Shown here one piece after another: positions 3,606-51,165 of a stretch of 64,000 nt of DNA. The notes under the pieces are model-generated. The model had not been told where the DNA came from, ran no database searches, and worked only from the letters and a program-made list of their open reading frames with translations. A program made the position numbers and the translations under genes. Source of the stretch: Clostridia bacterium. Its GTDB lineage: Bacteria > Bacillota > Clostridia > UBA1212 > UBA1255. Within the stretch, counting starts at the first letter, position 1. Every line of letters starts with the position of its first letter. Where the stretch lies: positions 7,288-71,287 of the forward strand of contig JAZQDE010000049.1 in assembly GCA_045546695.1 (NCBI GenBank), in the 5' to 3' direction.

Positions 3606-4274
3606 TTACATTTCAAAGTTTTTAAGAAACGACCTTCTGTGTATATCGCTGTAGCCAAGGCTTCTTATAGCGTCGTAATGTTTTTTCGTTCCGTAACCTT
3701 TATGTCCGGCAAATCCATATCCCGGATATTTGCTGTCATATTCTACCATCATCCTGTCCCTGGTAACTTTTGCGATTATTGATGCCGCCGCAATTGATAC
3801 GCTAAGTGCGTCGCCGTGTGTTATAGAGACAGTCTTGCATGGCATTTTATCAAGCTTTACGTGGTCTATAAATATAACGTCCCAACTTGATAAGCCTGCT
3901 CCGTTTTGCTTTTCTGCAAGCATTTTCATGGCATTTTCACATGCAAGATGCATTGCCATATGAGTTGCTTTGAGTATGTTGACTTCGTCGATTGTAGTGT
4001 TGTCGATGATTCCGACTCCCCAAGCAAGGCAATTATTAATGATATCATCATAAAGCGCTTCGCGTTTTGCTTCGCTGAGCTTCTTTGAGTCATCTGCCAT
4101 CGGAAACTTGCAGTCCGCGCTGAAAAAGACACAGCCTGCTACAACAGGGCCTGCCAGCGGTCCTCTGCCGGCCTCATCTATTCCGCCGATTATTTTCGCA
4201 CCGCATGCAGCATATTCGCGCTCAAATTTACACATTTCTATGTATTTTTCTTCACTCATTGCCATCTTTATCAC
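3606..4274 (-). CDS. rnhB: ribonuclease HII
   Basis: 222 aa. It contains GIDEAGRGPLAGPVV, the RNase HII active-site region. Confidence 0.9.
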   Translation of the reverse strand: MIKMAMSEEKYIEMCKFEREYAACGAKIIGGIDEAGRGPLAGPVVAGCVFFSADCKFPMADDSKKLSEAKREALYDDIINNCLAWGVGIIDNTTIDEVNILKATHMAMHLACENAMKMLAEKQNGAGLSSWDVIFIDHVKLDKMPCKTVSITHGDALSVSIAAASIIAKVTRDRMMVEYDSKYPGYGFAGHKGYGTKKHYDAIRSLGYSDIHRRSFLKNFEM

Positions 4275-5178
4275 CTAAACAATCGCTATGATCAAGCGAA
4301 ATTCTGCCAAATTTTGCCTTCCTGTAATCATCAAGTAAATACATTGAAGCTCTGTACAAATCAACTTCGCCTTTTTTCACGAGGCAGCCTCTTTTTCTTC
4401 CAAAAGCTTCCAGCATCTCAAGACCTTCTTCAAATGATGGAAAATCGCCTTCGGCGCTGCTCTCTATTGAATATTTTTCTTTAAGAACGCCCGGGTAATA
4501 TCTGCTCATGTATCTTATGAGATATATTGCTATTTCCTGGACATCAAGAACGTCATTCTTAATCGCACCTGTTGCTGCAAGTTTATATCCCACAATCTGG
4601 TCATCAAACTTAGGCCACAAAAGTCCGGGTGTGTCGAGCAGGTAAATATTGTCAGACATTTTAAGCCACTGCTTGTTCCTTGTAACACCCGGCTTATCGC
4701 CTGTCACGGCGACATTCTGTCCTGCGACTTTATTTATGAATGATGACTTGCCTACGTTCGGGATGCCTACAATCATAGCCTTAATAATCGGTGCTTTGCG
4801 CCCCTTTTCAAGATATCTTGCAGTCTTTTCTGCCATAATCTCATTTATAGCCTTAATAACGTCTTTGCTGCCACCACCTGTTTTGCAGTCGGTGAAAAAT
4901 ATACGTTTGCCCTGAGATGCATAATAATTTGCCCAGAAGCTATTCTGAACAGGATCTGCAAGGTCTTTTTTATTGCCGATAATTACACGTGGCTTGTTCT
5001 GAATCAGCTTGTCAATTTCAGGATTACGGCTTGAAAAAGGAATTCTGCTGTCAACCAGCTCAACAACAACGTCGACAAGCTTAAGATTCTCCGACAGAAG
5101 TCGTCTTGCCTTTGCCATATGACCGGGAAACCATTGTATATTTGAGTTTTCTCTTAATTCATCATTGAAGTGGCTCAT
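4252..5178 (-). CDS. rbgA: ribosome biogenesis GTPase A (YlqF/RbgA)
   Basis: 308 aa. It shows the circularly permuted GTPase order (NKKDLADP ... GIPNVGKSSFINK ... DTPG) and the WFPGHM N-terminal signature. Confidence 0.85.
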   Translation of the reverse strand: MSHFNDELRENSNIQWFPGHMAKARRLLSENLKLVDVVVELVDSRIPFSSRNPEIDKLIQNKPRVIIGNKKDLADPVQNSFWANYYASQGKRIFFTDCKTGGGSKDVIKAINEIMAEKTARYLEKGRKAPIIKAMIVGIPNVGKSSFINKVAGQNVAVTGDKPGVTRNKQWLKMSDNIYLLDTPGLLWPKFDDQIVGYKLAATGAIKNDVLDVQEIAIYLIRYMSRYYPGVLKEKYSIESSAEGDFPSFEEGLEMLEAFGRKRGCLVKKGEVDLYRASMYLLDDYRKAKFGRISLDHSDCLGDKDGNE

Positions 5179-6275: not shown

Positions 6276-7823
6276 TTATCCTGCAATATCAACCGAATCG
6301 ATGCCTGTGTACTTACCGATTGCCTTACTTTCTCCATTATGCCATACGTAAACAGTATTATTTGATGAATATATAATGTGCTCTATATTTGAATCAAAAA
6401 AGACTTCATTTGCTATATTCTGGCAGATTCTTGTAGTTCTGTTTTCAATTACAAGGTCTAAAGAAAGCTTGTTTTCTGCGTATTTGCGGCAAAGCAGATA
6501 TTCATCATCTGCAAGGCCATAGAGCCTTATTTCGTTTGACATATCAATTTTTTCTATATCACCTTTTTTAAACAATATATAGGCATCCTGTGAGCCATCG
6601 TTTTTCTGGTATCCCATAATCTTTTTATTGTAATAACTGTATAAAAATCCCGTATTATCGGATATCTTTGATATTTTCAGGGATACGTCAAGAACTTTGT
6701 ATCTGTTCAGCGTTGCATCTTCGTTGCGGAAATACAAAAGACCTAATGACTCCTGGTATAAAAACGTTGCGTTTTTATCACACGTTATTTGCTTTTGCGG
6801 CTTATTTCCACCGGCAGACATATAAATTGTGGAAGAATATTCTGACTTGACCGTGTACAGTATCATGTCATCATTCTGCGAGTAATATATAACGTTTGAA
6901 ATTTCCTGCGCAACCTGTTTTATTTTACCATCTTTAAAATACATTAACGATGCGGTTGTTCCTTGTTCATTTGTAACAATATCTGTCAGTAAATACTTGA
7001 ATGGAACAGATTGGTTACATGGTATCTTCTCCGCTATTGGTTCGGTAATATATGACGCTGATGAATTCTTTACGAGCTGAGCACCTTGTTTTTTTGTAAC
7101 TATTTTTCCTTTTATATTTGCAAATACAAGTTCGCCATCTTTTTTATAACAGATATACTCCCCGTCTGAGTCAATATAAAACGATTTACCCGGATCTATA
7201 TTTTCAGCAACTTTTGTAACTTTAGCGTTTTTATCAGCATAAAGAAGGTCCATCTTACCTGTATCTTCCTTTGAATTATCTGCAAAAAGAACTCCATTTT
7301 CACCGATGCAATACAGGTTGTCTATCAATATGTTAGATACAGTATTTTCACTTATTTTGATATATTTATTGCCCTTATATAAGTAAAGATATGCGTCGTT
7401 ATTCAGATCCACTGTGAAAATAACTGATTTGTCTTCAAACAGGTTGAAAAATGCACAGTTGTCTACAAGCATTCTTCTGCTGTTTGTTGTAATATCGTAT
7501 TCAAAGAGTTGGCTTTCTCTGAGGTAGTATACGAGTGCGTTTGACGTATCGTGTACAGCCTGACCTACTGAGTCATCGACCGGTGTAACTTCATATTCTT
7601 CGTTAATAATATACAAATCAGAATTGCTGTCTGTGAAAATAAACGGAAACATCTGTACCCGGCTGACGCCCATATCGTCGTCCTGAGTCATATCCGTTAC
7701 ATTGCCCGGCATTAGTTCGAGTAGCGATATAACAACAAATACAACAAATACAACACAGAATGCAATTATTGCATTGCGTTTTTTATCTCGTGTTATATAC
7801 GTTTTGATTTTTTTCTCAGCCAT
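6276..7823 (-). CDS. hypothetical membrane-anchored (type II) extracytoplasmic protein
   Basis: 515 aa. An N-terminal basic stretch is followed by one TM helix ([18 protein letters not shown]). The rest is Y/N/D-rich beta-type repeats. I recognise no family. It overlaps the metA stop by 8 nt. Confidence 0.65.
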
Positions 7824-37840: not shown

Positions 37841-40840
37841 TTATTTTATGTTAACTTTGAATGTTCTTGCGCTACCATTATCATCCATTTCAACCACGAA
37901 TGAATAGCTGTACGTGCCGTCTTCGTTGTAGTCAATCTGATGTCCGTCAAAATCTTTTTCATTGATTACATATTCTGTCCAGCCAGATCCTGTTTTTTCC
38001 TGGATAGAAATGCCTGACATTGATGTTATGCCGTCGATTCTTACGGTGAATCTGTTGCGTCCGCCGGAGAGCGTAAACTCAGCCGCGTTGTTGTCAGCCT
38101 TAACAATCGGAATATATGTATCTTCAACAACTGTGCCTGTCTGTGCCGTAATCTTCAGCTTGTTGAAAACTGAGTCTTGTCTTACATACTGAACGTTGCT
38201 GTCATCTGTATCTGTACCTGTTCCCCACGGCACCAGAATGAAGTCGAGTCTGATGTAGTCACCTTTTTTGAATTTAACAGTATCTTCCATGAGTGACAAG
38301 TCACCATAGTTCAGGTTGCCGTTAAATGCATTACGGAAAGCAAAGTCGCCATTCCATTTTTCACCGCCGATTACGATATCGTAATCCACCATAATGTAGG
38401 CAAAGTTCATGATATTTGTATTGGCGTTGTTAAGTCCGTAGTATGTGAAATACGGTGCCTTGTTGCCAATATTTAACAGTTCGTATGCGCCGTCTGTCTT
38501 TGTGGTGCGTTTGTTTACGGGGTTGCCGTTTTCATCAGTATATCCGACATAGTCAAAATTCTCTGCCCTGCCGTCGAAGCTGAATAACGTAAAGTTTGTT
38601 TTTACGTCTTCAATTGTCAGATCTTTGAGGAAATTAAGATCCATTGTGTAGTATGTTCTGTTCTCGTCATCCTGCGGGAATTCAACGTGTCTTAACGTGT
38701 ACTCGTATGAACCGCAATCTGAGATATAGTTGTAGTCCATATCTGCATATGTGTTTCCTGAAGACCTTATGTCTGTGTCCGTGTATTCAGCGGCGTACGT
38801 TATGTTGTCCTTTACGTATGACGCAAAGCGCAGTCTGCCTACTGCGTTGAACTGTGGCTGTGATGCCCACATTGTTCCGCTGCAGCCTCTGAAATCAGGC
38901 AGTGTCCACTGGTCTTTGCCATATACAAAGTATGGCGCGATACAGTTCGATTCTGTTACACCTGTTGACAGGTGGTAATATGAAATGTGGAACTGGATTG
39001 ATGATATTTGTTTGAGTGGGAATTTACCCCAGTTCTGGTACAGGTGGTGAATTGAGTAATTAAGCGTCTGTCCTGCAGATATTTTCAGCGGAATGAAGCT
39101 GTCGCCGTATCCTGTGTCTGCAGGCTCGTAGAAGGGCTCTTCTTTTTCACCGGAGAAATTCTTGCAGACCTGAGGGTTGATAGGTGTCAGCAGGCCGTTT
39201 GAATCTACGACTGCTGCGCCTTCGAGTGCTCCTGTTATACTGTTCGTCCAGATGTACATGTTGCGGTCAACGCCTGTGTCGTTCGTGATTGACACGTCTG
39301 CTGTGTAGTATTCATTTCTGTTCTTGTACGCTACGTTGAAGTCTGAGCCGCCCATTTTTATATGATACGAACCTCTGTATGGGTCATATTCTATGTATTT
39401 TGCGCCTACTTTTCTTGCAGATTCTGCCGTAATCTGTGTAATAGGATTACGCTCGAGTTTTGCTTCTGCTGCAATGCCGTCAAACGAGTTTGTTTCGTCG
39501 TTATAAATGCGGCTTCCGATTGTGAGTATTCTCTTGTTGTATTCTATTTCCTGTCTGATAACGAGGTACTCGCCTTCCGGCTGTGCTGTTACGTTGTATT
39601 CGATTTCGTCTTTAGGAATAATAAAACCTATAACGCCTGCATATTTTACGCTGGCAGCTACGTATTCCGGCTCGCCGTTTTCATCGAATGACACTTTGTA
39701 ATCGAGTACGTTTTCGAGTGGAATTTTGAGTTCGATGCCGTAGGTTTCAAATTCTGTAAGCGCATCACCAATTCTGCTTTTTACAAGGCGATATTCCTGA
39801 TGTACTTTATCAGAATATACGTGGAAAGTCTTGTCGAGTTTGTATATAGGTGTGCTGACTTCTTTACCGATTACCTTAATACTCTTTATTGTAAATGTAT
39901 CGCCTACTTTTTGGCCAAAGTCAAATCTTACACCTACGAGGCCTTCTTTAGCGCCTTTTATTGACGACAGGTCTATTCTGTATGTGCGGTCTGTACCGTC
40001 TGATACAATACCAAAGGAGAGGCGCTGTTCTGCGTTGAAGCCTTTACCTGATGTTGTCGCGATGAAAAGTTCAGCATTAGAGGTCTGACCGACTGAGTTG
40101 ATTGTAACTTCGATGTGTGTTGATGCTTCGCCGGCAACTTCAAAGTTGTTAAGACAGCAGTATGGGTCGTGTGTGTCTGTTGCTTTGATTGTTACTGTTC
40201 CGTTTTTGTATTCCGGATTTGACATTTGGTTTACAGTCCATCCGGTATCAATTTTTAACTCTTCACTGCTTGTTATTTCATCCTGAAACTCACTTTCAGA
40301 TATATCTTCGCCGAAGCCGAGTTCGCGGATATGTGTTTCGTAATAGTAGTAGCCCAGGCGTACTGTGTTCATTCTTGCGTACGTTGGTGAATAAGCTGAC
40401 GAGTATACTGTGCCATCTTTACCTTTGAGGTATACGTCAAGTGTATCGTGTGCGTATGAGATGCCGTCTTTGTTTGCTATATCCCTGACGCTTAATTTAT
40501 CTGTTGTGTCCATCGTATGCACAAGGCTCATATCTGTGTTTACGAGTGCATAGTAGTGTCTTGTAGGATCTGCATAGAAGCCCTGTACTGTGTTTTCAAG
40601 GCTACTTGAGTAGGCAAAACTTGCAGACAGTGGGCTGTCGTTATTTATTTCATGTGCGCCCGGCTCTATCGCCTTTATGCCGAAGCTCAACGGATCGTCA
40701 GGAATGTTGTTTTCCGGCTTCTTTTTGTCGTTGTCTGTCGTTTTGCACGCTACCATTGATAATACTATTGTAGCTAATACGGCGATTGCAACGATTGATA
40801 AACATATTTTCATCATTTTTGTAATGCGCATAAGAAACAC
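37841..40840 (-). CDS. large exported lipoprotein of unknown function
   Basis: 999 aa. Signal peptide and lipobox (AIAVLATIVLSMVACKTT). The body is Y/N/D/G-rich all-beta type with no recognised catalytic motif. Confidence 0.7.
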   Translation of the reverse strand: MFLMRITKMMKICLSIVAIAVLATIVLSMVACKTTDNDKKKPENNIPDDPLSFGIKAIEPGAHEINNDSPLSASFAYSSSLENTVQGFYADPTRHYYALVNTDMSLVHTMDTTDKLSVRDIANKDGISYAHDTLDVYLKGKDGTVYSSAYSPTYARMNTVRLGYYYYETHIRELGFGEDISESEFQDEITSSEELKIDTGWTVNQMSNPEYKNGTVTIKATDTHDPYCCLNNFEVAGEASTHIEVTINSVGQTSNAELFIATTSGKGFNAEQRLSFGIVSDGTDRTYRIDLSSIKGAKEGLVGVRFDFGQKVGDTFTIKSIKVIGKEVSTPIYKLDKTFHVYSDKVHQEYRLVKSRIGDALTEFETYGIELKIPLENVLDYKVSFDENGEPEYVAASVKYAGVIGFIIPKDEIEYNVTAQPEGEYLVIRQEIEYNKRILTIGSRIYNDETNSFDGIAAEAKLERNPITQITAESARKVGAKYIEYDPYRGSYHIKMGGSDFNVAYKNRNEYYTADVSITNDTGVDRNMYIWTNSITGALEGAAVVDSNGLLTPINPQVCKNFSGEKEEPFYEPADTGYGDSFIPLKISAGQTLNYSIHHLYQNWGKFPLKQISSIQFHISYYHLSTGVTESNCIAPYFVYGKDQWTLPDFRGCSGTMWASQPQFNAVGRLRFASYVKDNITYAAEYTDTDIRSSGNTYADMDYNYISDCGSYEYTLRHVEFPQDDENRTYYTMDLNFLKDLTIEDVKTNFTLFSFDGRAENFDYVGYTDENGNPVNKRTTKTDGAYELLNIGNKAPYFTYYGLNNANTNIMNFAYIMVDYDIVIGGEKWNGDFAFRNAFNGNLNYGDLSLMEDTVKFKKGDYIRLDFILVPWGTGTDTDDSNVQYVRQDSVFNKLKITAQTGTVVEDTYIPIVKADNNAAEFTLSGGRNRFTVRIDGITSMSGISIQEKTGSGWTEYVINEKDFDGHQIDYNEDGTYSYSFVVEMDDNGSARTFKVNIK

Positions 40841-40926
40841 CTACCTTGATTTGTTACGTAATTGTTAACATTGATTTTACTATAGTCCCCGTTTATATGT
40901 CAAGGTGAGTATTTCCCGGGAAATAC

Positions 40927-42117
40927 ATGATTATTTTGCTTTTTACGCTGTCTTGTAATAGAATTGTTGCCATGGCCATATTTTTTGATTTACCTGACAG
41001 CCGGAATGCAATTGATGATGTGTACGCGCTTTTGCGTGCGCAGCTTCTTTCTGCAGCAAAGACCAGCTTCCGGATTACTTCGTTGCTTAAAGGGATGGTT
41101 GATCCCGGTCAAATTCGTTTTTACAAAAAATATGTGAAGTACAAGCCTAAAGGCTCTCAGACTACCCGTGTTTATGAATATAACAGTCATTATTTGCGTT
41201 ATAGTGAAAATGTTGTTGACAAAAAAGGTAATATCAGGACTCGTTATTTTACGCGTATTCTGCCGAATGAGGAGTACGAGAAGATTCAGCGGGATAGTAA
41301 TCTGTTCAGGTATCTTTCAGTGGCGCGTGAATGCGTGAATAATATTCTCGACAGGACAAAAGCGCTTCTCTTGTCTTCTTTTTATTATAATCCAAACGAT
41401 TATCCCGACATTGATTCTGAAATATCACTTGCTGTGTGTGCGGAAAAGGATTCTGAGGACTCCCGCCGCTGGCATATTGAGAACAGAGTTTGTTATTCGC
41501 CTGAAAAATATAAATGTATTGATTTGCATTCTCTACCTTTTATGTCGCGGGGTGAGTTATTGCTTTATGAGGCATTTGCTCATTGTGGCTTATCTCCAAA
41601 ATATGAAGCTCCTTTGCAAATTTCCGGTCCGCGCCACGCCGGCAAGACTTATTATCCTGACTTTACATGCGAGTGCAATGGTAAGACGTATTATTTTGAA
41701 TATTTCGGCATGATGAATGACCCTGCATATTTTGCAGACGCCTGTCGTAAGATTGAAGATTATACGAGACATGGTCTTGTACCCGGACACAACTTTATTG
41801 CTTTTTGTTCTGGTGATTCAAGTGCTATCAATCTTGAAGTTGTAGTTAAAGTTTTGCAAAAAATCGTATCAGGTCAATCTCTACTTGAGAAGGATAATTA
41901 TATTTCTATGCCAGGTATAGTGCGTCTTGACTCTATTTCCTCGTGGTCTTTACCGCAAGATCTTTGCAATATAATTGCAGAAGAATCAAAGAGGTTCATT
42001 CCCAAAAAACACAAGACAAAGTCTCGTCAGCGCAATATTAAGACGGAAAAACGCGAAAATCCTGTTTTATCGACGCCTGATGAGTATAGTGATGTCATTT
42101 TAAAAATTGAAGAATAG
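40927..42117 (+). CDS. hypothetical protein with a basic C-terminal tail and an uncertain start
   Basis: 396 aa ORF. There is no clear RBS. Alternative ATGs at 40927 and 40972 remain open. No signal peptide. The C-terminal tail is KKHKTKSRQRNIKTEKREN. Function unknown. Confidence 0.55.
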   Translation: MIILLFTLSCNRIVAMAIFFDLPDSRNAIDDVYALLRAQLLSAAKTSFRITSLLKGMVDPGQIRFYKKYVKYKPKGSQTTRVYEYNSHYLRYSENVVDKKGNIRTRYFTRILPNEEYEKIQRDSNLFRYLSVARECVNNILDRTKALLLSSFYYNPNDYPDIDSEISLAVCAEKDSEDSRRWHIENRVCYSPEKYKCIDLHSLPFMSRGELLLYEAFAHCGLSPKYEAPLQISGPRHAGKTYYPDFTCECNGKTYYFEYFGMMNDPAYFADACRKIEDYTRHGLVPGHNFIAFCSGDSSAINLEVVVKVLQKIVSGQSLLEKDNYISMPGIVRLDSISSWSLPQDLCNIIAEESKRFIPKKHKTKSRQRNIKTEKRENPVLSTPDEYSDVILKIEE

Positions 42118-42198
42118 TCAATTTTCTGCCCTTTTGCCCTCTTGCTGCCATTTTTTGGCAATTTGACGTCTGCCAGGGCCTTTCACCCTTGCTTCCTC

Positions 42199-42437
42199 CC
42201 GGTTTTGCAAATAGTTCCCCGCCTTCATTTGCAAAACCGCAAGTGAGAGATAGCCCTTTTTGCCTGCTCTACCTCGGTTTTGCAAATAATTTGCCGCTTT
42301 CATTTGCAAAACGGCATAGCGTAATGGCCGACCTTGCACCTGATGCCCCGGTTTTGCAAATAATTTGCCATTTTCATTTGCAAAACCGAGATGATAAACA
42401 GCGTAAAAAAGGCCGGTTTTGCAAATGCAAAACCGGC
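42199..42437. repeat. tandem array of hairpin repeats. Three 40-nt units sit 75 and 74 bp apart, followed by one loop-deleted unit.
   Basis: The units are at 42199-42238, 42274-42313 and 42348-42387. Each is CGGTTTTGCAAAT-[14-nt loop AATTTGCC(G/A)(C/T)TTTC]-ATTTGCAAAACCG, a 12-13 bp perfect stem. The fourth copy at 42410-42437 is GGCCGGTTTTGCAAATGCAAAACCGGCC, which is the stem without the loop. Spacers are 35, 34 and 22 nt. Spacers 1 and 2 are weakly similar to each other (TTGCCTGCT vs TTGCACCTGAT). Confidence 0.8.
42404..42437 (-). terminator. rho-independent terminator of the 42463-43791 lipoprotein gene
   Basis: On the minus strand a 12-bp GC-rich stem (GGCCGGTTTTGC/GCAAAACCGGCC, 4-nt loop) is followed directly by TTTTTT. 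It lies 25 nt past the stop codon. Confidence 0.7.
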
Positions 42438-42462
42438 CGCGGTTAAACTTGGCTCAGCAGGC

Positions 42463-43791
42463 TCAGTCAACTAATTTAGCGGGCACATAGCCTGAAGTCT
42501 TGAATGTAGTATTCTTGAATTTATATGCTGTATTAATTGTATTGCCATCTTCATTGCTGTCTATAACACATGGCAGCACACCGATATCAACGCCTGCTGC
42601 CGGAGCAAATGCAGTGGTATCAATTTTACCCTCTTTAAGCTGCATTTCAGACCACGGAATAAATGCCTCAATGATGTAGCTTGAACTGCCTGATGTGTGG
42701 CCTGCGGCTTTCGCTGTTACCTTGTCAGATATAATACCCTCTTTATAATTATTACGATAGGTTACAACACTGCCATCTTCTTTCGCGCCAAAAGTGAAGA
42801 ATATTCCGTCAGTATAATTGCCTGTCATCAGATAGCCCGGATTAAAAGCAATCTGCACACAGTCTGCGCCAACCCATGATTCCTTATCGCCACGATAGCC
42901 TGGGGTTGAATCAGTCACTTCCGCAGCGTAATAGAAGCCGCTGTCGTCCCACGACATATAAATTGTAGTCTTGTTGTTTCCGATAGCACTACCTACCCAC
43001 GGAGAACAAGAGCTTTTGTCCATAACGTATGATGTCTTGTATTCGCCGTCTGCAATTGCAGCGTCAACCGTTGCTGTTCCACGATGGATTTCAAAAGAAA
43101 TACCGATATCTGGTGTTGCAACAGGAGCCAACGGGTCATCGTTGTCATCATCAGGATAATCTTTGTCGAGCATCAGGTCATTCGGTCTGTATGCATACAT
43201 AAAGCCCGTAATCGGCTCTAAAAATGGTTGCTCACCAGCATTATACTCTGTACCTTTATTACATTGAATTCTTGCATCACTGCCCGCGTCATATCTGAGG
43301 AAAGTACCATCTTCATTCATTGAGCTTGCACACATAAACGTATGCGCAGGTTTATAATCAGCATTAGGATTTACAAAAACAATATCTCCTGCCTGAAGTT
43401 CTTCAAGATTCTCAATCTTTTCAAAGCCCTGAGACTCGCACCATCCGGGAAGCGCCCATACGGTTACGCCCTGTGTATACGGCTGGTCTGTATATCCTAC
43501 ACGATATAAAATCCAGTCGACAAGTCTGTCGCAGCTAACCTTTTTTTCGGAAGGATCAATAGCCTTCTCGGGGTCAAGATGTTCCCAGTTTATAGCAGGG
43601 TTAATTCTTGCATCACCATAAACAAAGTCATTATCACGAATAAAATCAGCAACAACCTGCGCCTCTTTCATAAGATGTTCACGCAAGGTCATTCCACCCT
43701 CTTCACCATCATCGCCTTCTTTACAAGATACTCCCGCAAAAGCCAGCATAAACACCAGCAAAAGCGACAAAACTCTGACAAAATTTCTCAT
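42463..43791 (-). CDS. exported lipoprotein. The N-terminal domain may be a papain-like (CHAP/NlpC-P60-type) Cys/His domain and the C-terminal domain is a CBM9/DOMON-like sugar-binding domain.
   Basis: 442 aa. Lipobox LAFAGVSC. The N-terminal domain has a conserved Cys (CDRLVDWIL) and a downstream His (PAHTFMC). The C-terminal ~200 aa are an all-beta region resembling carbohydrate-binding family 9. The domain calls are tentative. Confidence 0.65.
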   Translation of the reverse strand: MRNFVRVLSLLLVFMLAFAGVSCKEGDDGEEGGMTLREHLMKEAQVVADFIRDNDFVYGDARINPAINWEHLDPEKAIDPSEKKVSCDRLVDWILYRVGYTDQPYTQGVTVWALPGWCESQGFEKIENLEELQAGDIVFVNPNADYKPAHTFMCASSMNEDGTFLRYDAGSDARIQCNKGTEYNAGEQPFLEPITGFMYAYRPNDLMLDKDYPDDDNDDPLAPVATPDIGISFEIHRGTATVDAAIADGEYKTSYVMDKSSCSPWVGSAIGNNKTTIYMSWDDSGFYYAAEVTDSTPGYRGDKESWVGADCVQIAFNPGYLMTGNYTDGIFFTFGAKEDGSVVTYRNNYKEGIISDKVTAKAAGHTSGSSSYIIEAFIPWSEMQLKEGKIDTTAFAPAAGVDIGVLPCVIDSNEDGNTINTAYKFKNTTFKTSGYVPAKLVD

Positions 43792-47545: not shown

Positions 47546-47600
47546 TTCCGCCCCACCTTTTAAACTATAAAATCCAGATTAATAATATCACGACAAAGCA

Positions 47601-47628
47601 AAAAAACCAAGTCATAAGACTTGGTTTT
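47601..47628 (-). terminator. rho-independent terminator downstream of tRNA-Tyr
   Basis: Minus strand: AAAAACCAAGTC-TTAT-GACTTGGTTTTT followed by T residues. It starts 2 nt after the tRNA 3' end. Confidence 0.6.
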
Positions 47629-47629
47629 T

Positions 47630-47711
47630 ATGGGAGATTGTGGATTCGAACCACAGAAGTCGTCGACAACAGATTTACAGTCTGCCCCCTTTGGCCGCTC
47701 GGGAAATCTCC
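47630..47711 (-). tRNA. tRNA-Tyr (anticodon GTA), type II with long variable arm
   Basis: Reverse complement: GGGAGAT TT CCCG AGCGGCCAAA GGGGG C AGACTGTAAATCT GTTGTCGACGACTTC TGTGG TTCGAATC CACA ATCTCCC A. It has a 7-bp acceptor stem, an anticodon loop with GTA and the GTTCGAATC T-loop. 82 nt. No 3' CCA is encoded. Confidence 0.9.
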
Positions 47712-47741
47712 CAGCTTCCGAAATATTCAATTTTCGGAACA

Positions 47742-47814
<73 letters not shown>

Positions 47815-47842
47815 CTTGTGCTTGTTTTCAAGCAACGTGTGA

Positions 47843-49896: not shown

Positions 49897-51165
49897 TTAT
49901 CTCTTTTTCTTGAGAACTACGCATGCTGCAAGGATCATTGCAACGTGAGCGATAACTGCTGATGAGCCGCAGCCGCCTTCTTCTTCCTTAGCCGGAGCCT
50001 GGATAGGAGCTGCTGTCGGAGCCTCTGTCGGAGCCTCTGTCGGAGCTTCAGTCGGAGCTACTGTAGGCTCAACTGGAGGTTCAACTGTAGGCTCAGGTGT
50101 AGCGTTCGGATCTTCAAACTCTGTGCCTGATTCAACAAACTGTGCACCTGCTTCTGCAATAAGTGAGAACCATAAATGACGACCCTGTGGGTTACGGTTT
50201 GTAGCATTTGTCCATTTCTGGAAATATAATTCGTTTTCAGTTTCATCCTCGTATAATATCGGACCTGTACCGATCCACAGCTGTGGGCTACCTGCCTCTA
50301 CGGGATCAAATGTCTCAGTAACCTGGAGAACTAATAAGTATTCGCCTGCAGGAATAGGTTCATCGAATGTACATACACAGTACTGGTTTGTATCAGATGA
50401 AAATTCTTCTGTGGAAGAAACCGGATCTTCATCATATTCAAAAGCGCCCGGGTTTGAACCATAGTTCTTATCGCCCCAGTCTTCATCATACGGATAAATC
50501 TCAACTGTAAAGGTAACGCCGCCATTTGGACGCATTACCTGGAATGCTATTTCCTGGAAAGCGCCGGAAACTGTAAAGTGCTGTGCATAATACTGGCCTA
50601 CGCCTGTGCCCATAACGACAGCCGTGCTATAGTGATTTGTAGTAGAGTCAAGAGAAACAGGTGACAGTGAAACCTTTGTTCCCTCAGGGAATGCTTCGCC
50701 ATAATAAGAAATAGTCGGAGCCTTTACGTTTATACCTGACTCAATGAGGTTGATACTGAACTTATATGTACCGGCTTCTTCAACCTTAAAATACAACTTA
50801 TGGTCTGTGTATGTTGTCCAGTTGCCTGCTGCGGCAAAACCATTTACAACGCTCTGCGGAGCACCGTTGATAGAGCAACCAACCTTACCTGCGCCCGCAT
50901 TTGAGCAAATAGGTGTAACAGCTTCGTAAACGCCCGGTTTGCTTACCGTAATTTCCCATGAAATTTCGTCAAGAGCTGTAATATAACCAAAGTTACCGCC
51001 TTCTTCAAGTTTGAGCTGACCATTTTTAATGGATGTAAGTGTTGCCGCATTCGGATCAAGTGCTACAGAACCTTCTGCAGGAATCTCAACTGCTGCGTTA
51101 GATGTTATAGCAAACATACTGATAAGCATACATGCCACAACTATAAAAAGTGTTAATTTCTTCAT
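49897..51165 (-). CDS. cell-surface protein with a Pro/Thr/Glu/Ala-rich linker and a C-terminal hydrophobic anchor
   Basis: 422 aa. Signal peptide MKKLTLFIVVACMLISMFAITSNA. The body is beta-rich (CBM-like). The C-terminus is EPTVEPPVEPTVAPTEAPTEAPTEAPTAAP...GGCGSSAVIAHVAMILAACVVLKKKR. The DNA carries a 15-nt tandem repeat, 3 copies, at 49981-50041. Confidence 0.7.
   Translation of the reverse strand: MKKLTLFIVVACMLISMFAITSNAAVEIPAEGSVALDPNAATLTSIKNGQLKLEEGGNFGYITALDEISWEITVSKPGVYEAVTPICSNAGAGKVGCSINGAPQSVVNGFAAAGNWTTYTDHKLYFKVEEAGTYKFSINLIESGINVKAPTISYYGEAFPEGTKVSLSPVSLDSTTNHYSTAVVMGTGVGQYYAQHFTVSGAFQEIAFQVMRPNGGVTFTVEIYPYDEDWGDKNYGSNPGAFEYDEDPVSSTEEFSSDTNQYCVCTFDEPIPAGEYLLVLQVTETFDPVEAGSPQLWIGTGPILYEDETENELYFQKWTNATNRNPQGRHLWFSLIAEAGAQFVESGTEFEDPNATPEPTVEPPVEPTVAPTEAPTEAPTEAPTAAPIQAPAKEEEGGCGSSAVIAHVAMILAACVVLKKKR

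Follow-up and report, generated by a model that had tools for sequence, protein, structure and literature searches.

The 345-bp intergenic gap at 42118-42462 of the window (the whole 64,000-nucleotide, or 64-kb, stretch of DNA analysed here) is flanked in the ORF list by two convergent genes, the plus-strand ORF396 and a minus-strand CBM9 gene, and it holds a tandem array of hairpins. Our preferred reading, which we hold tentatively, is that this array is a locus-bound hairpin minisatellite, i.e. a variable-number tandem repeat (VNTR), the full copies of which would act as 3'-end stem-loops between the convergent transcripts. A tandem array of 40-nt hairpins at 75- and 74-bp spacing between convergent genes had been described in a first-pass annotation of this DNA, and its coordinates and geometry were confirmed. 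The features of the locus are as follows.

40972..42117, plus strand: ORF396 (listed as an ORF from 40927), with M16 at 40972 as the likely start; an uncharacterised protein.
42118..42199, plus strand: leader, running from the ORF396 stop to H1; pyrimidine-rich and G-poor, with the motif CCATTTTTT.
42200..42239, no strand assigned: hairpin H1, with a 13-bp stem and the loop AGTTCCCCGCCTTC; 74 bits with the covariance model.
42240..42274, no strand assigned: spacer A, 35 nt, recurring in tandem in other strains.
42275..42314, no strand assigned: hairpin H2, with 11 contiguous pairs plus a closing pair and the loop AATTTGCCGCTTTC; 67.8 bits with the covariance model.
42315..42348, no strand assigned: spacer B, 34 nt, unrelated to spacer A; found in the strain of contig L065 and missing from contig L062.
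42349..42388, no strand assigned: hairpin H3, with a 13-bp stem and the loop AATTTGCCATTTTC; 73.7 bits with the covariance model.
42389..42410, no strand assigned: spacer C, ending in A6 (42405-42410), which is the terminator T-tract on the minus strand.
42405..42438, minus strand: H4 terminator, with the stem core of H1-H3, a 2-4 nt loop, a GGCC/GGCC clamp and a T6 tail.
42463..43791, minus strand: CBM9-like lipoprotein gene, 442 aa, with Pfam CBM9_1 at E = 6.7e-7 and a signal/lipobox-like N-terminus.

The full hairpins H1-H3 are 40 nt each, with start-to-start distances of 75 and 74 bp and loops of 14 nt. The direct-repeat family D1 comprised three 41-nt copies at 42197, 42272 and 42346, likewise spaced by 75 and 74 bp, with 85-93% identity to the reference copy. 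The stem arms, CGGTTTTGCAAAT and ATTTGCAAAACCG, form 13 perfect base pairs in H1 and H3, where they are 100% complementary with 14 nt between them (42200-42212/42227-42239 and 42349-42361/42376-42388). H2 pairs over 11 contiguous positions (42277-42287/42302-42312), followed by a G.G mismatch, which occurs because its right arm ends in CGG, and then by a closing C-G pair. The loops are asymmetric (A[AG]TT...TTC) and read in the same direction in all hairpins.

The fourth copy at 42411-42438, GGCCGGTTTTGCA-AA-TGCAAAACCGGCC, has 13-bp arms and a deleted loop and is followed directly by TTTTTT on the minus strand. The terminator scan ranked it first in the region (12 pairs, eight of them G-C, tail TTTTTTACGC), in agreement with the earlier description of a stem-only fourth copy fused to the T-tract of the downstream minus-strand gene. 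Its fold was predicted at -23.4 kcal/mol, and it scored 18.6 bits over positions 5-44 of the covariance model. Judged from its sequence, H4 is the intrinsic (Rho-independent) terminator of the minus-strand CBM9 lipoprotein gene. It shares with intrinsic terminators a G+C-rich stem, a short loop and a T6 tail, whereas H1-H3 have a 14-nt loop and lack a U-tract on either strand and are therefore not canonical terminators.

Single hairpins were predicted to be stable on either strand, at -10.7 to -22.3 kcal/mol. For H1, the plus and minus strands folded at -15.6 and -18.6 kcal/mol respectively (z = -6.4 and -5.0), and for H3 at -16.0 and -22.3 kcal/mol. Compared with shuffles, the whole 345-bp gap gave folding z values of -6.8 (plus strand) and -8.0 (minus strand), which bears out the hairpins proposed in the first-pass annotation. 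None of the seven exact matches to GGTTTTGCAAAT in the 64 kb falls outside 42201-42426; when up to two mismatches were allowed, 21 matches were found where 10.5 were expected, a number that none of 100 shuffles reached. No GC-skew switch or replication terminus was found at the position of the array. Similarity between the spacers inside the window was not significant (p = 0.77, 0.99 and 0.075 against shuffles), so the earlier claim that they are weakly similar to each other is unsupported there. The longest match of a spacer elsewhere in the window or in the compared loci was at most 12-14 nt.

Variation within the species was assessed in ENA and Logan contigs with near-identical relatives of ORF396, to which one contig reaching in from the CBM9 gene was added. 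Of the 12 contigs that approach from ORF396, 11 end 17-212 nt past its stop, in or just before the array, the broken contigs including lengths of 15.7, 15.7 and 8.0 kb, and the one approaching from the CBM9 gene ends in H2. The one contig that spans the gap, L062, carries two full hairpins and the terminator, compared with three and the terminator in the window. Contigs L055 and L060 read hairpin-spacer A-hairpin-spacer A, in L061 spacer A comes after an H3-type hairpin, and L051 has two near-identical units; near-identical units of 74-75 bp were found in L051, L055 and L060. The module of H3, spacer C and H4 is constant in the window, L062 and L065, which are all the strains covering it. Exact look-ups of the window's own two flanking proteins returned no contig, and a protein-guided scan of JGI metagenomes returned just two distant loci.

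The duplicated, missing and mosaic units among same-species contigs therefore indicate a VNTR. Spacer A, being repeated in tandem in other strains, is part of the duplicating unit. The proposal that the real unit is a duplication of about 75 bp thus holds through the tandem spacer A of L051, L055, L060 and L061, but not through the likeness among spacers in the window on which it had been based.

Constraint was examined across ten distinct hairpin copies. Variable positions numbered 2 of 26 in the stem compared with 8 of 14 in the loop (Fisher p = 0.0012), and 7 of 8 flank positions varied, matching the first-pass impression of a conserved hairpin with a drifting flank. The hairpin stem is probably under selection, since stems are conserved in sequence while loops drift. 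There were no compensatory double changes in the stems among the ten copies. Among wobble-pair variants, two favour the plus strand and one the minus strand: a C/T variant in the leader and a spacer variant in L051 keep an extended stem on the plus strand only, and a G-to-A variant in L052 keeps pairing on the minus strand only.

These patterns bear on a neutral or selfish origin, which we consider unlikely, in which a terminator region was duplicated by slippage and its copies are drifting. The stems would then look conserved only through homogenisation of pairing-prone repeats by recombination or gene conversion. Such an origin would account for the copy-number polymorphism and mosaic units across strains, for the presence of the array in one species only, with homologous positions in other genera lacking it, and for the absence of a match to RNA families in Rfam. 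Homogenisation should, however, carry loops and linkers along with the stems, and the stems are far more conserved than either, both within and between strains. The common loop type of H2 and H3 in unrelated flanks and the stability of the H3-spacer C-H4 module wherever it is covered also argue against neutrality.

To search for copies elsewhere, a covariance model was built from the ten distinct hairpin copies and applied to the window with its filters switched off. It found only the array, with the next match at 18 bits inside a coding region. The pattern GTTTTGCAAAT-N8-22-ATTTGCAAAAC was scanned against 185,579 species-representative genomes (GTDB, one per species) and gave 50 loci, all of them single palindromes in unrelated taxa, none with the 14-nt loop or the CGG/CCG clamp. 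A stricter hairpin pattern had no matches in JGI metagenomes, IMG/VR gave one single unrelated hairpin and nothing akin to the array, and blastn found no match to the array region or spacers in plasmids and phages. With Rfam 15, the gathering score was reached in the window only by two tRNAs, and the best match at the array was STnc500 at a sub-threshold 20 bits (gathering score 44). A known RNA family was accordingly rejected as the identity of the array, and the small structured RNA suggested earlier has no known counterpart at gathering score.

Several related genomes of the Oscillospiraceae contain repeats of comparable layout. At 4198-4358 of locus L078, directly 3' of an ORF396 homologue, three inverted-repeat units TTTTTTCAA...TTGAAAAAA lie 73 and 54 bp apart. 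At 3708-3818 of L066, an unrelated locus, two 40-nt hairpins TTTTTTTTCAATA-N11-TATTGAAAAAA have a 71-bp period. Single units of the form TTTTTTCA-N15-18-TGAAAAAA are common in the spacers of these genomes, with five over 7 kb of L074 and the same number over 6 kb of L075; the window has just one, within a coding region. Whole-unit homology of the window array to the L066 and L078 arrays was rejected, their similarity not being significant. Hairpin-like arrays of such geometry recur in the family, and the one in the window may be related to them, as a form strengthened by G-C pairs. We know of no described family to which the arrays of the L066 and L078 type belong.

This distribution is relevant to the idea that the unit is a low-copy mobile hairpin, similar to a REP or MITE, inserting next to itself as in a BIME cluster and with further copies outside the window. 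The near-identity of H2 and H3, loop included, between flanks that are unrelated on both sides fits copying of the 40 nt alone, and a dispersed hairpin-like family does occupy many spacers of related genomes, with arrays at 54-73-bp spacing. We nevertheless judge it improbable. The covariance model with filters off found no further copy in 64 kb, none of the 50 matches among the species-representative genomes has such a loop length or clamp, JGI metagenomes gave zero matches, and IMG/VR, plasmids and phages held nothing related. Together these searches leave the REP-like mobile palindrome of the first-pass annotation without copies beyond the array. All hairpins have a single orientation, and neither a Y1 (RAYT) nor any other transposase occurred among the approximately 47 window ORFs scanned. 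With respect to MITEs, there were no other copies and no direct repeat visibly flanking single hairpins. A mobile-element setting for the array was also rejected, with no transposase or integrase in the window and no match in plasmids or phages.

A CRISPR reading, as a mini-array or as an orphan array resembling CRISPR, would fit by geometry alone, with a 40-nt repeat and 34-35-nt spacers that are mutually dissimilar in the window. We give this reading practically no credence. There are no cas genes in the 64-kb window (Pfam, approximately 47 ORFs), the 14-nt centre of the repeat is variable at eight positions, spacer A recurs in tandem within the arrays of L051, L055, L060 and L061, the spacers have no phage or plasmid match, and the last 'repeat' is a terminator. 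The array thus has neither repeats that are near-identical over their full length nor unique spacers from mobile DNA nor nearby cas genes, and the first-pass decision against CRISPR was sound.

Two further candidates were rejected. A coding repeat was considered for a 73-aa minus-strand ORF, an 85-aa plus-strand ORF and a 56-aa ORF, and the array-encoded peptides had no match in 5.8 billion proteins; with units of 71, 74 or 75 bp the reading frame changes from one unit to the next and from strain to strain, so that ORFs through the array are not kept intact. A sigma-54-like -24/-12 motif (TGGCAA-N5-TTGCA) on the minus strand of H3, less exact in H2, was judged to be due to chance, because TTGCA is in every arm, the GGCA of the loop is the sole addition and H1-type loops lack it. 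The Pfam scan of approximately 47 ORFs found no sigma-54 activator or enhancer-binding protein in the window.

The surroundings of the array are those of an ordinary chromosome, the approximately 47 ORFs scanned with Pfam yielding housekeeping and transport genes only, including amino-acid biosynthesis, ABC transporters, glycoside hydrolases and hydrogenase. For ORF396, 11 of 12 homologues begin with MAIF/MTYF aligned to M16. The protein is conserved across the Oscillospiraceae/Ruminococcaceae, with 13 homologues at E ≤ 0.001, of which the two with source names come from Ruminococcaceae/Oscillospiraceae-type MAGs, and it had no match in Pfam, NCBIfam or PDB sequences. Its AF2 model (pLDDT 76.5) gave weak top matches in Foldseek (E 0.07-1), mostly to PD-(D/E)xK nucleases (Bax1, Cdn1/Can2, OkrAI, MGME1, AF1548, XisH and RecU), and residues ~207-325 resembled in tblastn the C-terminal domain of RecD-like helicases and AAA ATPases. 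Given these structural matches and the RecD-like resemblance, a PD-(D/E)xK restriction-endonuclease-like domain is probable in the C-terminal part of ORF396. Homologues elsewhere occupy varied settings by genus, beside DUF1846, mraZ or pyridoxal kinase. Conserved synteny of the ORF396-CBM9 pair was rejected, as the downstream genes differ in every genus and are not CBM9 homologues.

The terminator scan found no canonical plus-strand terminator after the ORF396 stop codon. The leader that follows is 34% C, 16% G and 10% A. Its first 70 nt past the stop show no differences across ten same-species contigs; the ORF396 gene in same-species contigs has 2.9-4.0% base differences from the window, mostly at third codon positions. 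The leader motif CCATTTTTT is conserved across genera, as is its distance from the stop, with CCAT(A/T)TTTT found 27-31 nt past the stop in the window and in L053, L071, L074 and L078. The 3' end of the leader resembles the 3' end of spacer A in L051 (p = 0.0025).

In the minisatellite and stem-loop reading that we prefer, the repeating unit is a stem-loop of 40 nt followed by a linker of about 35 nt, with the 14-nt loop free to vary. Copy number would change by slipped-strand mispairing or unequal recombination between identical stems. The full copies H1-H3 lie in the 3' untranslated region of ORF396 and just beyond the CBM9 terminator. As RNA stem-loops they could halt or pause read-through from both sides as a backup to termination, and they could block 3'-to-5' exonucleases and so stabilise the upstream mRNA. 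The predicted outcome is insulation of the convergent genes from each other, as with REP/BIME arrays in E. coli, minus the dispersed family. Consistent with this, ORF396 lacks a canonical terminator and is followed by an invariant C-rich, G-poor leader, and the arrays of related genomes adjoin an intrinsic terminator (L078 4198-4358; L066 3708-3818).

Other observations sit less easily with stem-loops acting in RNA, namely that H1-H3 are without a U-tract, that the stems show no covariation and that the strand signals of the variants conflict. In L071, an imperfect hairpin, CGTTTTGCAAATA-N11-TATTCACAAAACG, lies 3' of the ORF396 homologue between two terminators; little transcription is expected across this related hairpin.

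The stems are conserved in sequence and not in pairing alone, and a protein-binding site therefore fits this conservation equally well. In the corresponding alternative, the array would act at the DNA level as a set of protein-binding sites and the hairpin potential would be incidental. Each arm holds an 8-bp palindrome, TTTGCAAA, the centres of the two in one hairpin lying 24 bp from each other, and a dimeric protein would occupy seven sites in 240 bp. That protein might be the ORF396 product, or a nucleoid or regulatory protein. As an account of the whole locus we consider this somewhat unlikely, although a number of results point towards it. Besides the stem sequence, which is conserved without compensatory changes, seven of the 13 TTTGCAAA sites of the 64 kb are inside the array. 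The 11-mer GTTTTGCAAAT occurs once each in L071 (7238) and L074 (4275), both times 3' of the ORF396 homologue, where base composition predicts approximately 1.4e-3 occurrences. Inverted half-sites of the form TTTTTTCA-N15-18-TGAAAAAA are common in related genomes at nearly fixed spacing, and their interiors are often non-complementary, which suggests a binding site more than an RNA stem; at position 6061 of L074, TTTTTTCA is paired with TGCAAAA. The nuclease-like fold predicted for ORF396 would also agree with a DNA-level role.

Set against these results, successive sites are spaced by 24, 51, 24, 50, 24 and 41 bp, out of helical phase. Conservation also extends to the CGG/CCG clamp and the AAT/ATT inner pairs, which would be unneeded by a site consisting of TTTGCAAA only. 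The hairpin of L071 scores 14.4 bits (E = 0.2) with the covariance model, the motif is absent 3' of the ORF396 homologues in L053, L075 and L078, and the similarity of the window units to the L066 and L078 units is not significant. A regulator for the motif was not found in one text search of the literature, which returned only unrelated primer and oligonucleotide matches and no regulator binding motif.

A link between the hairpin and the ORF396 gene, drawn from sequence comparison, is suggestive only. In its extended form, which we regard as a long shot, the hairpins would be the cognate DNA or RNA partner of the ORF396 family, with the gene, its conserved 3' leader and TTTTGCA...TGCAAAA-type repeats forming one module in several Oscillospiraceae genera that was amplified to an array here and in the L078 species. 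There is a perfect Noc-binding-site palindrome, TATTTCCCGGGAAATA, upstream of ORF396, and homologues of ORF396 have been placed beside the mraZ cell-division cluster. If the module is real, this palindrome and the mraZ neighbourhood would point to a nucleoid or division role, and a link to the nuclease-like neighbour would provide a first handle on the ORF396 protein family.

For the hairpin minisatellite itself, the retention of 26 stem bases while loops, linkers and copy number change makes a clean case. With the stem kept while the rest varies, the strains form a handy natural series for asking how many 3' stem-loops it takes to keep convergent genes insulated in an uncultured gut Firmicute. 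The array also breaks almost every short-read metagenome assembly of the host species at one point. It calls for caution in annotation, as its geometry mimics a CRISPR mini-array and yields spurious ORFs of 56-85 aa.

Among known systems, REPs occur in hundreds of dispersed copies, are linked to RAYT transposases and alternate in orientation within BIMEs; the copy number of REP clusters varies by strain. The window array resembles the REP/BIME clusters of enterobacteria, such as the BIME-2 cluster REP325 of E. coli, as a cluster of stem-loops of ~35-40 nt in an extragenic 3' region, a position that in REP/BIME clusters is often between convergent genes, and its units are imperfect palindromes of this length at a gene 3' end. 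The REP325 array of E. coli terminates transcription in a partly Rho-dependent manner and stabilises mRNA, and where REPs separate convergent genes, both genes tend to be more highly expressed (bioRxiv 10.64898/2026.03.23.713779). This partial termination plus stabilisation is the role proposed for the full copies here. The window array differs in having no second locus in the searches run (64-kb window, GTDB representatives, JGI and IMG/VR) and in that its copies all point one way. No RAYT (Y1, IS200-like) transposase was found in the window, and RAYT genes can sit anywhere in a genome. By analogy, then, the window array would resemble a REP/BIME cluster in its proposed working and would not belong to that class, being non-dispersed in the searches run and uniform in orientation.

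The resemblance to a CRISPR array is confined to a partly palindromic 40-nt repeat with 34-35-nt spacers, whereas cas genes within 64 kb and protospacers in phages or plasmids are lacking, the repeat centre is variable and spacers recur. Closer in layout are the Oscillospiraceae arrays of L066 and L078, with inverted-repeat units of 32-40 nt at 54-73-bp spacing beside an intrinsic terminator and a half-site (TTTTTCA/TGAAAAA) one base apart from that of the window (TTTTGCA/TGCAAAA). Their stems are weak and consist almost wholly of A-T pairs, solitary copies are scattered over many spacers in the same genomes, and the arrays are identical across the 2-4 samples compared, in contrast to the variable array of the window.

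Minisatellites or VNTR loci consist of head-to-tail units of 50-100 bp in intergenic positions, and both head-to-tail units and a strain-variable copy number were found here. As in the mycobacterial MIRU-VNTR loci, the array is intergenic, its units are arranged head-to-tail, its copy number depends on the strain and assemblies break in it. MIRUs form a dispersed family for which a strong hairpin is not the defining feature, whereas the window array occupies a single locus and its unit is built on a perfect 13-bp stem of conserved sequence.

The region immediately 3′ of ORF396, the uncharacterised plus-strand gene next to the hairpin array, was conserved at two evolutionary distances. Within the species, the first 70 nt past the stop codon (42118-42187) were identical in all 10 strains compared, the ORFs of which differ by 3–4 %. 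Across five genera, the motif CCAT(A/T)TTTT was found 27–31 nt past the stop codon of ORF396 or its homologue, with no conservation of the intervening bases. No conservation of a minus-strand peptide was seen in 42118-42187 or at the homologous sites. The sites concerned were as follows.

Window, 42118-42187
L053, 7171
L071, 7132
L074, 4196
L078, 4100

The post-stop motif also resembles a hairpin arm (TTTTTTGGCAAT vs TTTTGCAAAT).

Further inverted-repeat structures were found both in the array and at the corresponding position in a relative. The sequence variant carried by the second hairpin of the array, in which the right arm ends in CGG and GCCGC lies in the loop, gives rise to an alternative minus-strand hairpin, TGCCGTTTTGCAAATGAAAGCGGCA (42292-42316), which is followed by a T-rich tail and came up in the terminator scan as a second terminator-like site. 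In L053, a related Oscillospiraceae contig, the spacer 3′ of the ORF396 homologue is flanked by 12–18-bp inverted repeats (7106-7125 and 7410-7448), the left of which overlaps the final codons of the homologue. These repeats, CTTTTGTTAATA and TATTAACAAAAG, are 100 % complementary, and the spacer between them holds a 12-bp palindrome, TTTGTTAACAAA.

Inverted half-sites with the pattern TTTTTTCA-N15-18-TGAAAAAA were numerous in contigs of related Oscillospiraceae, chiefly in intergenic spacers, and formed tandem arrays in two places, with a 71-bp period in L066 and spacings of 73 and 54 bp in L078. To our knowledge, neither a family with this motif nor a protein that binds it has been described. 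Its units were located as listed here.

L074: 559, 1773, 2872, 6061, 6896
L075: 37, 740, 1746, 3408, 5184
L066: 3568-3818
L078: 4198-4358
L053: 7218
Window: 49612, in a coding region (the only unit)

Three other features of the window were recorded.

37841-40840, minus strand, flanked by the DUF1846 gene and ORF396: gene whose 999-aa product has a signal/lipobox-like N-terminus
47631-47815, minus strand: a pair of neighbouring tRNA genes (Rfam, 69 and 49 bits)
49993-50154, within the minus-strand ORF 49897-51165: tandem repeats of 12, 21 and 24 bp that overlap one another

The 999-aa protein had no Pfam or NCBIfam match, and its gene is missing from the otherwise syntenic L053 locus. The tRNA genes, which are followed by a hairpin at 47599-47632, were the sole Rfam matches in the window. 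The tandem repeats probably encode a low-complexity repeat segment of the 422-aa product of their ORF, for which no Pfam match was obtained.

At the 5′ end of ORF396, a −10-like hexamer (TAGAAT, within 40950-40974) was found, with TACAAT at the homologous positions in L053, L071, L075 and L078. The hexamer ends 6–7 nt from the conserved ATG (M16 of the mechanically called ORF), and no Shine-Dalgarno sequence was visible before this ATG in the window or these four contigs. Taken together, this sequence arrangement suggests that the ORF396 family may be translated from leaderless mRNAs. Directly upstream of ORF396 lies a perfect 16-bp palindrome, TATTTCCCGGGAAATA (40910-40925), and half-sites of the form (C/T/A)GGGAAATA precede the likely start codon of the homologues in L071, L075, L078 and L053 by approximately 42–47 nt. 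The core of the palindrome, ATTTCCCGGGAAAT, has a single exact match in the window and three matches with no more than two mismatches, compared to 0.22 expected, and is the same as the Noc-binding-site consensus of Bacillus subtilis, as taken from published papers.
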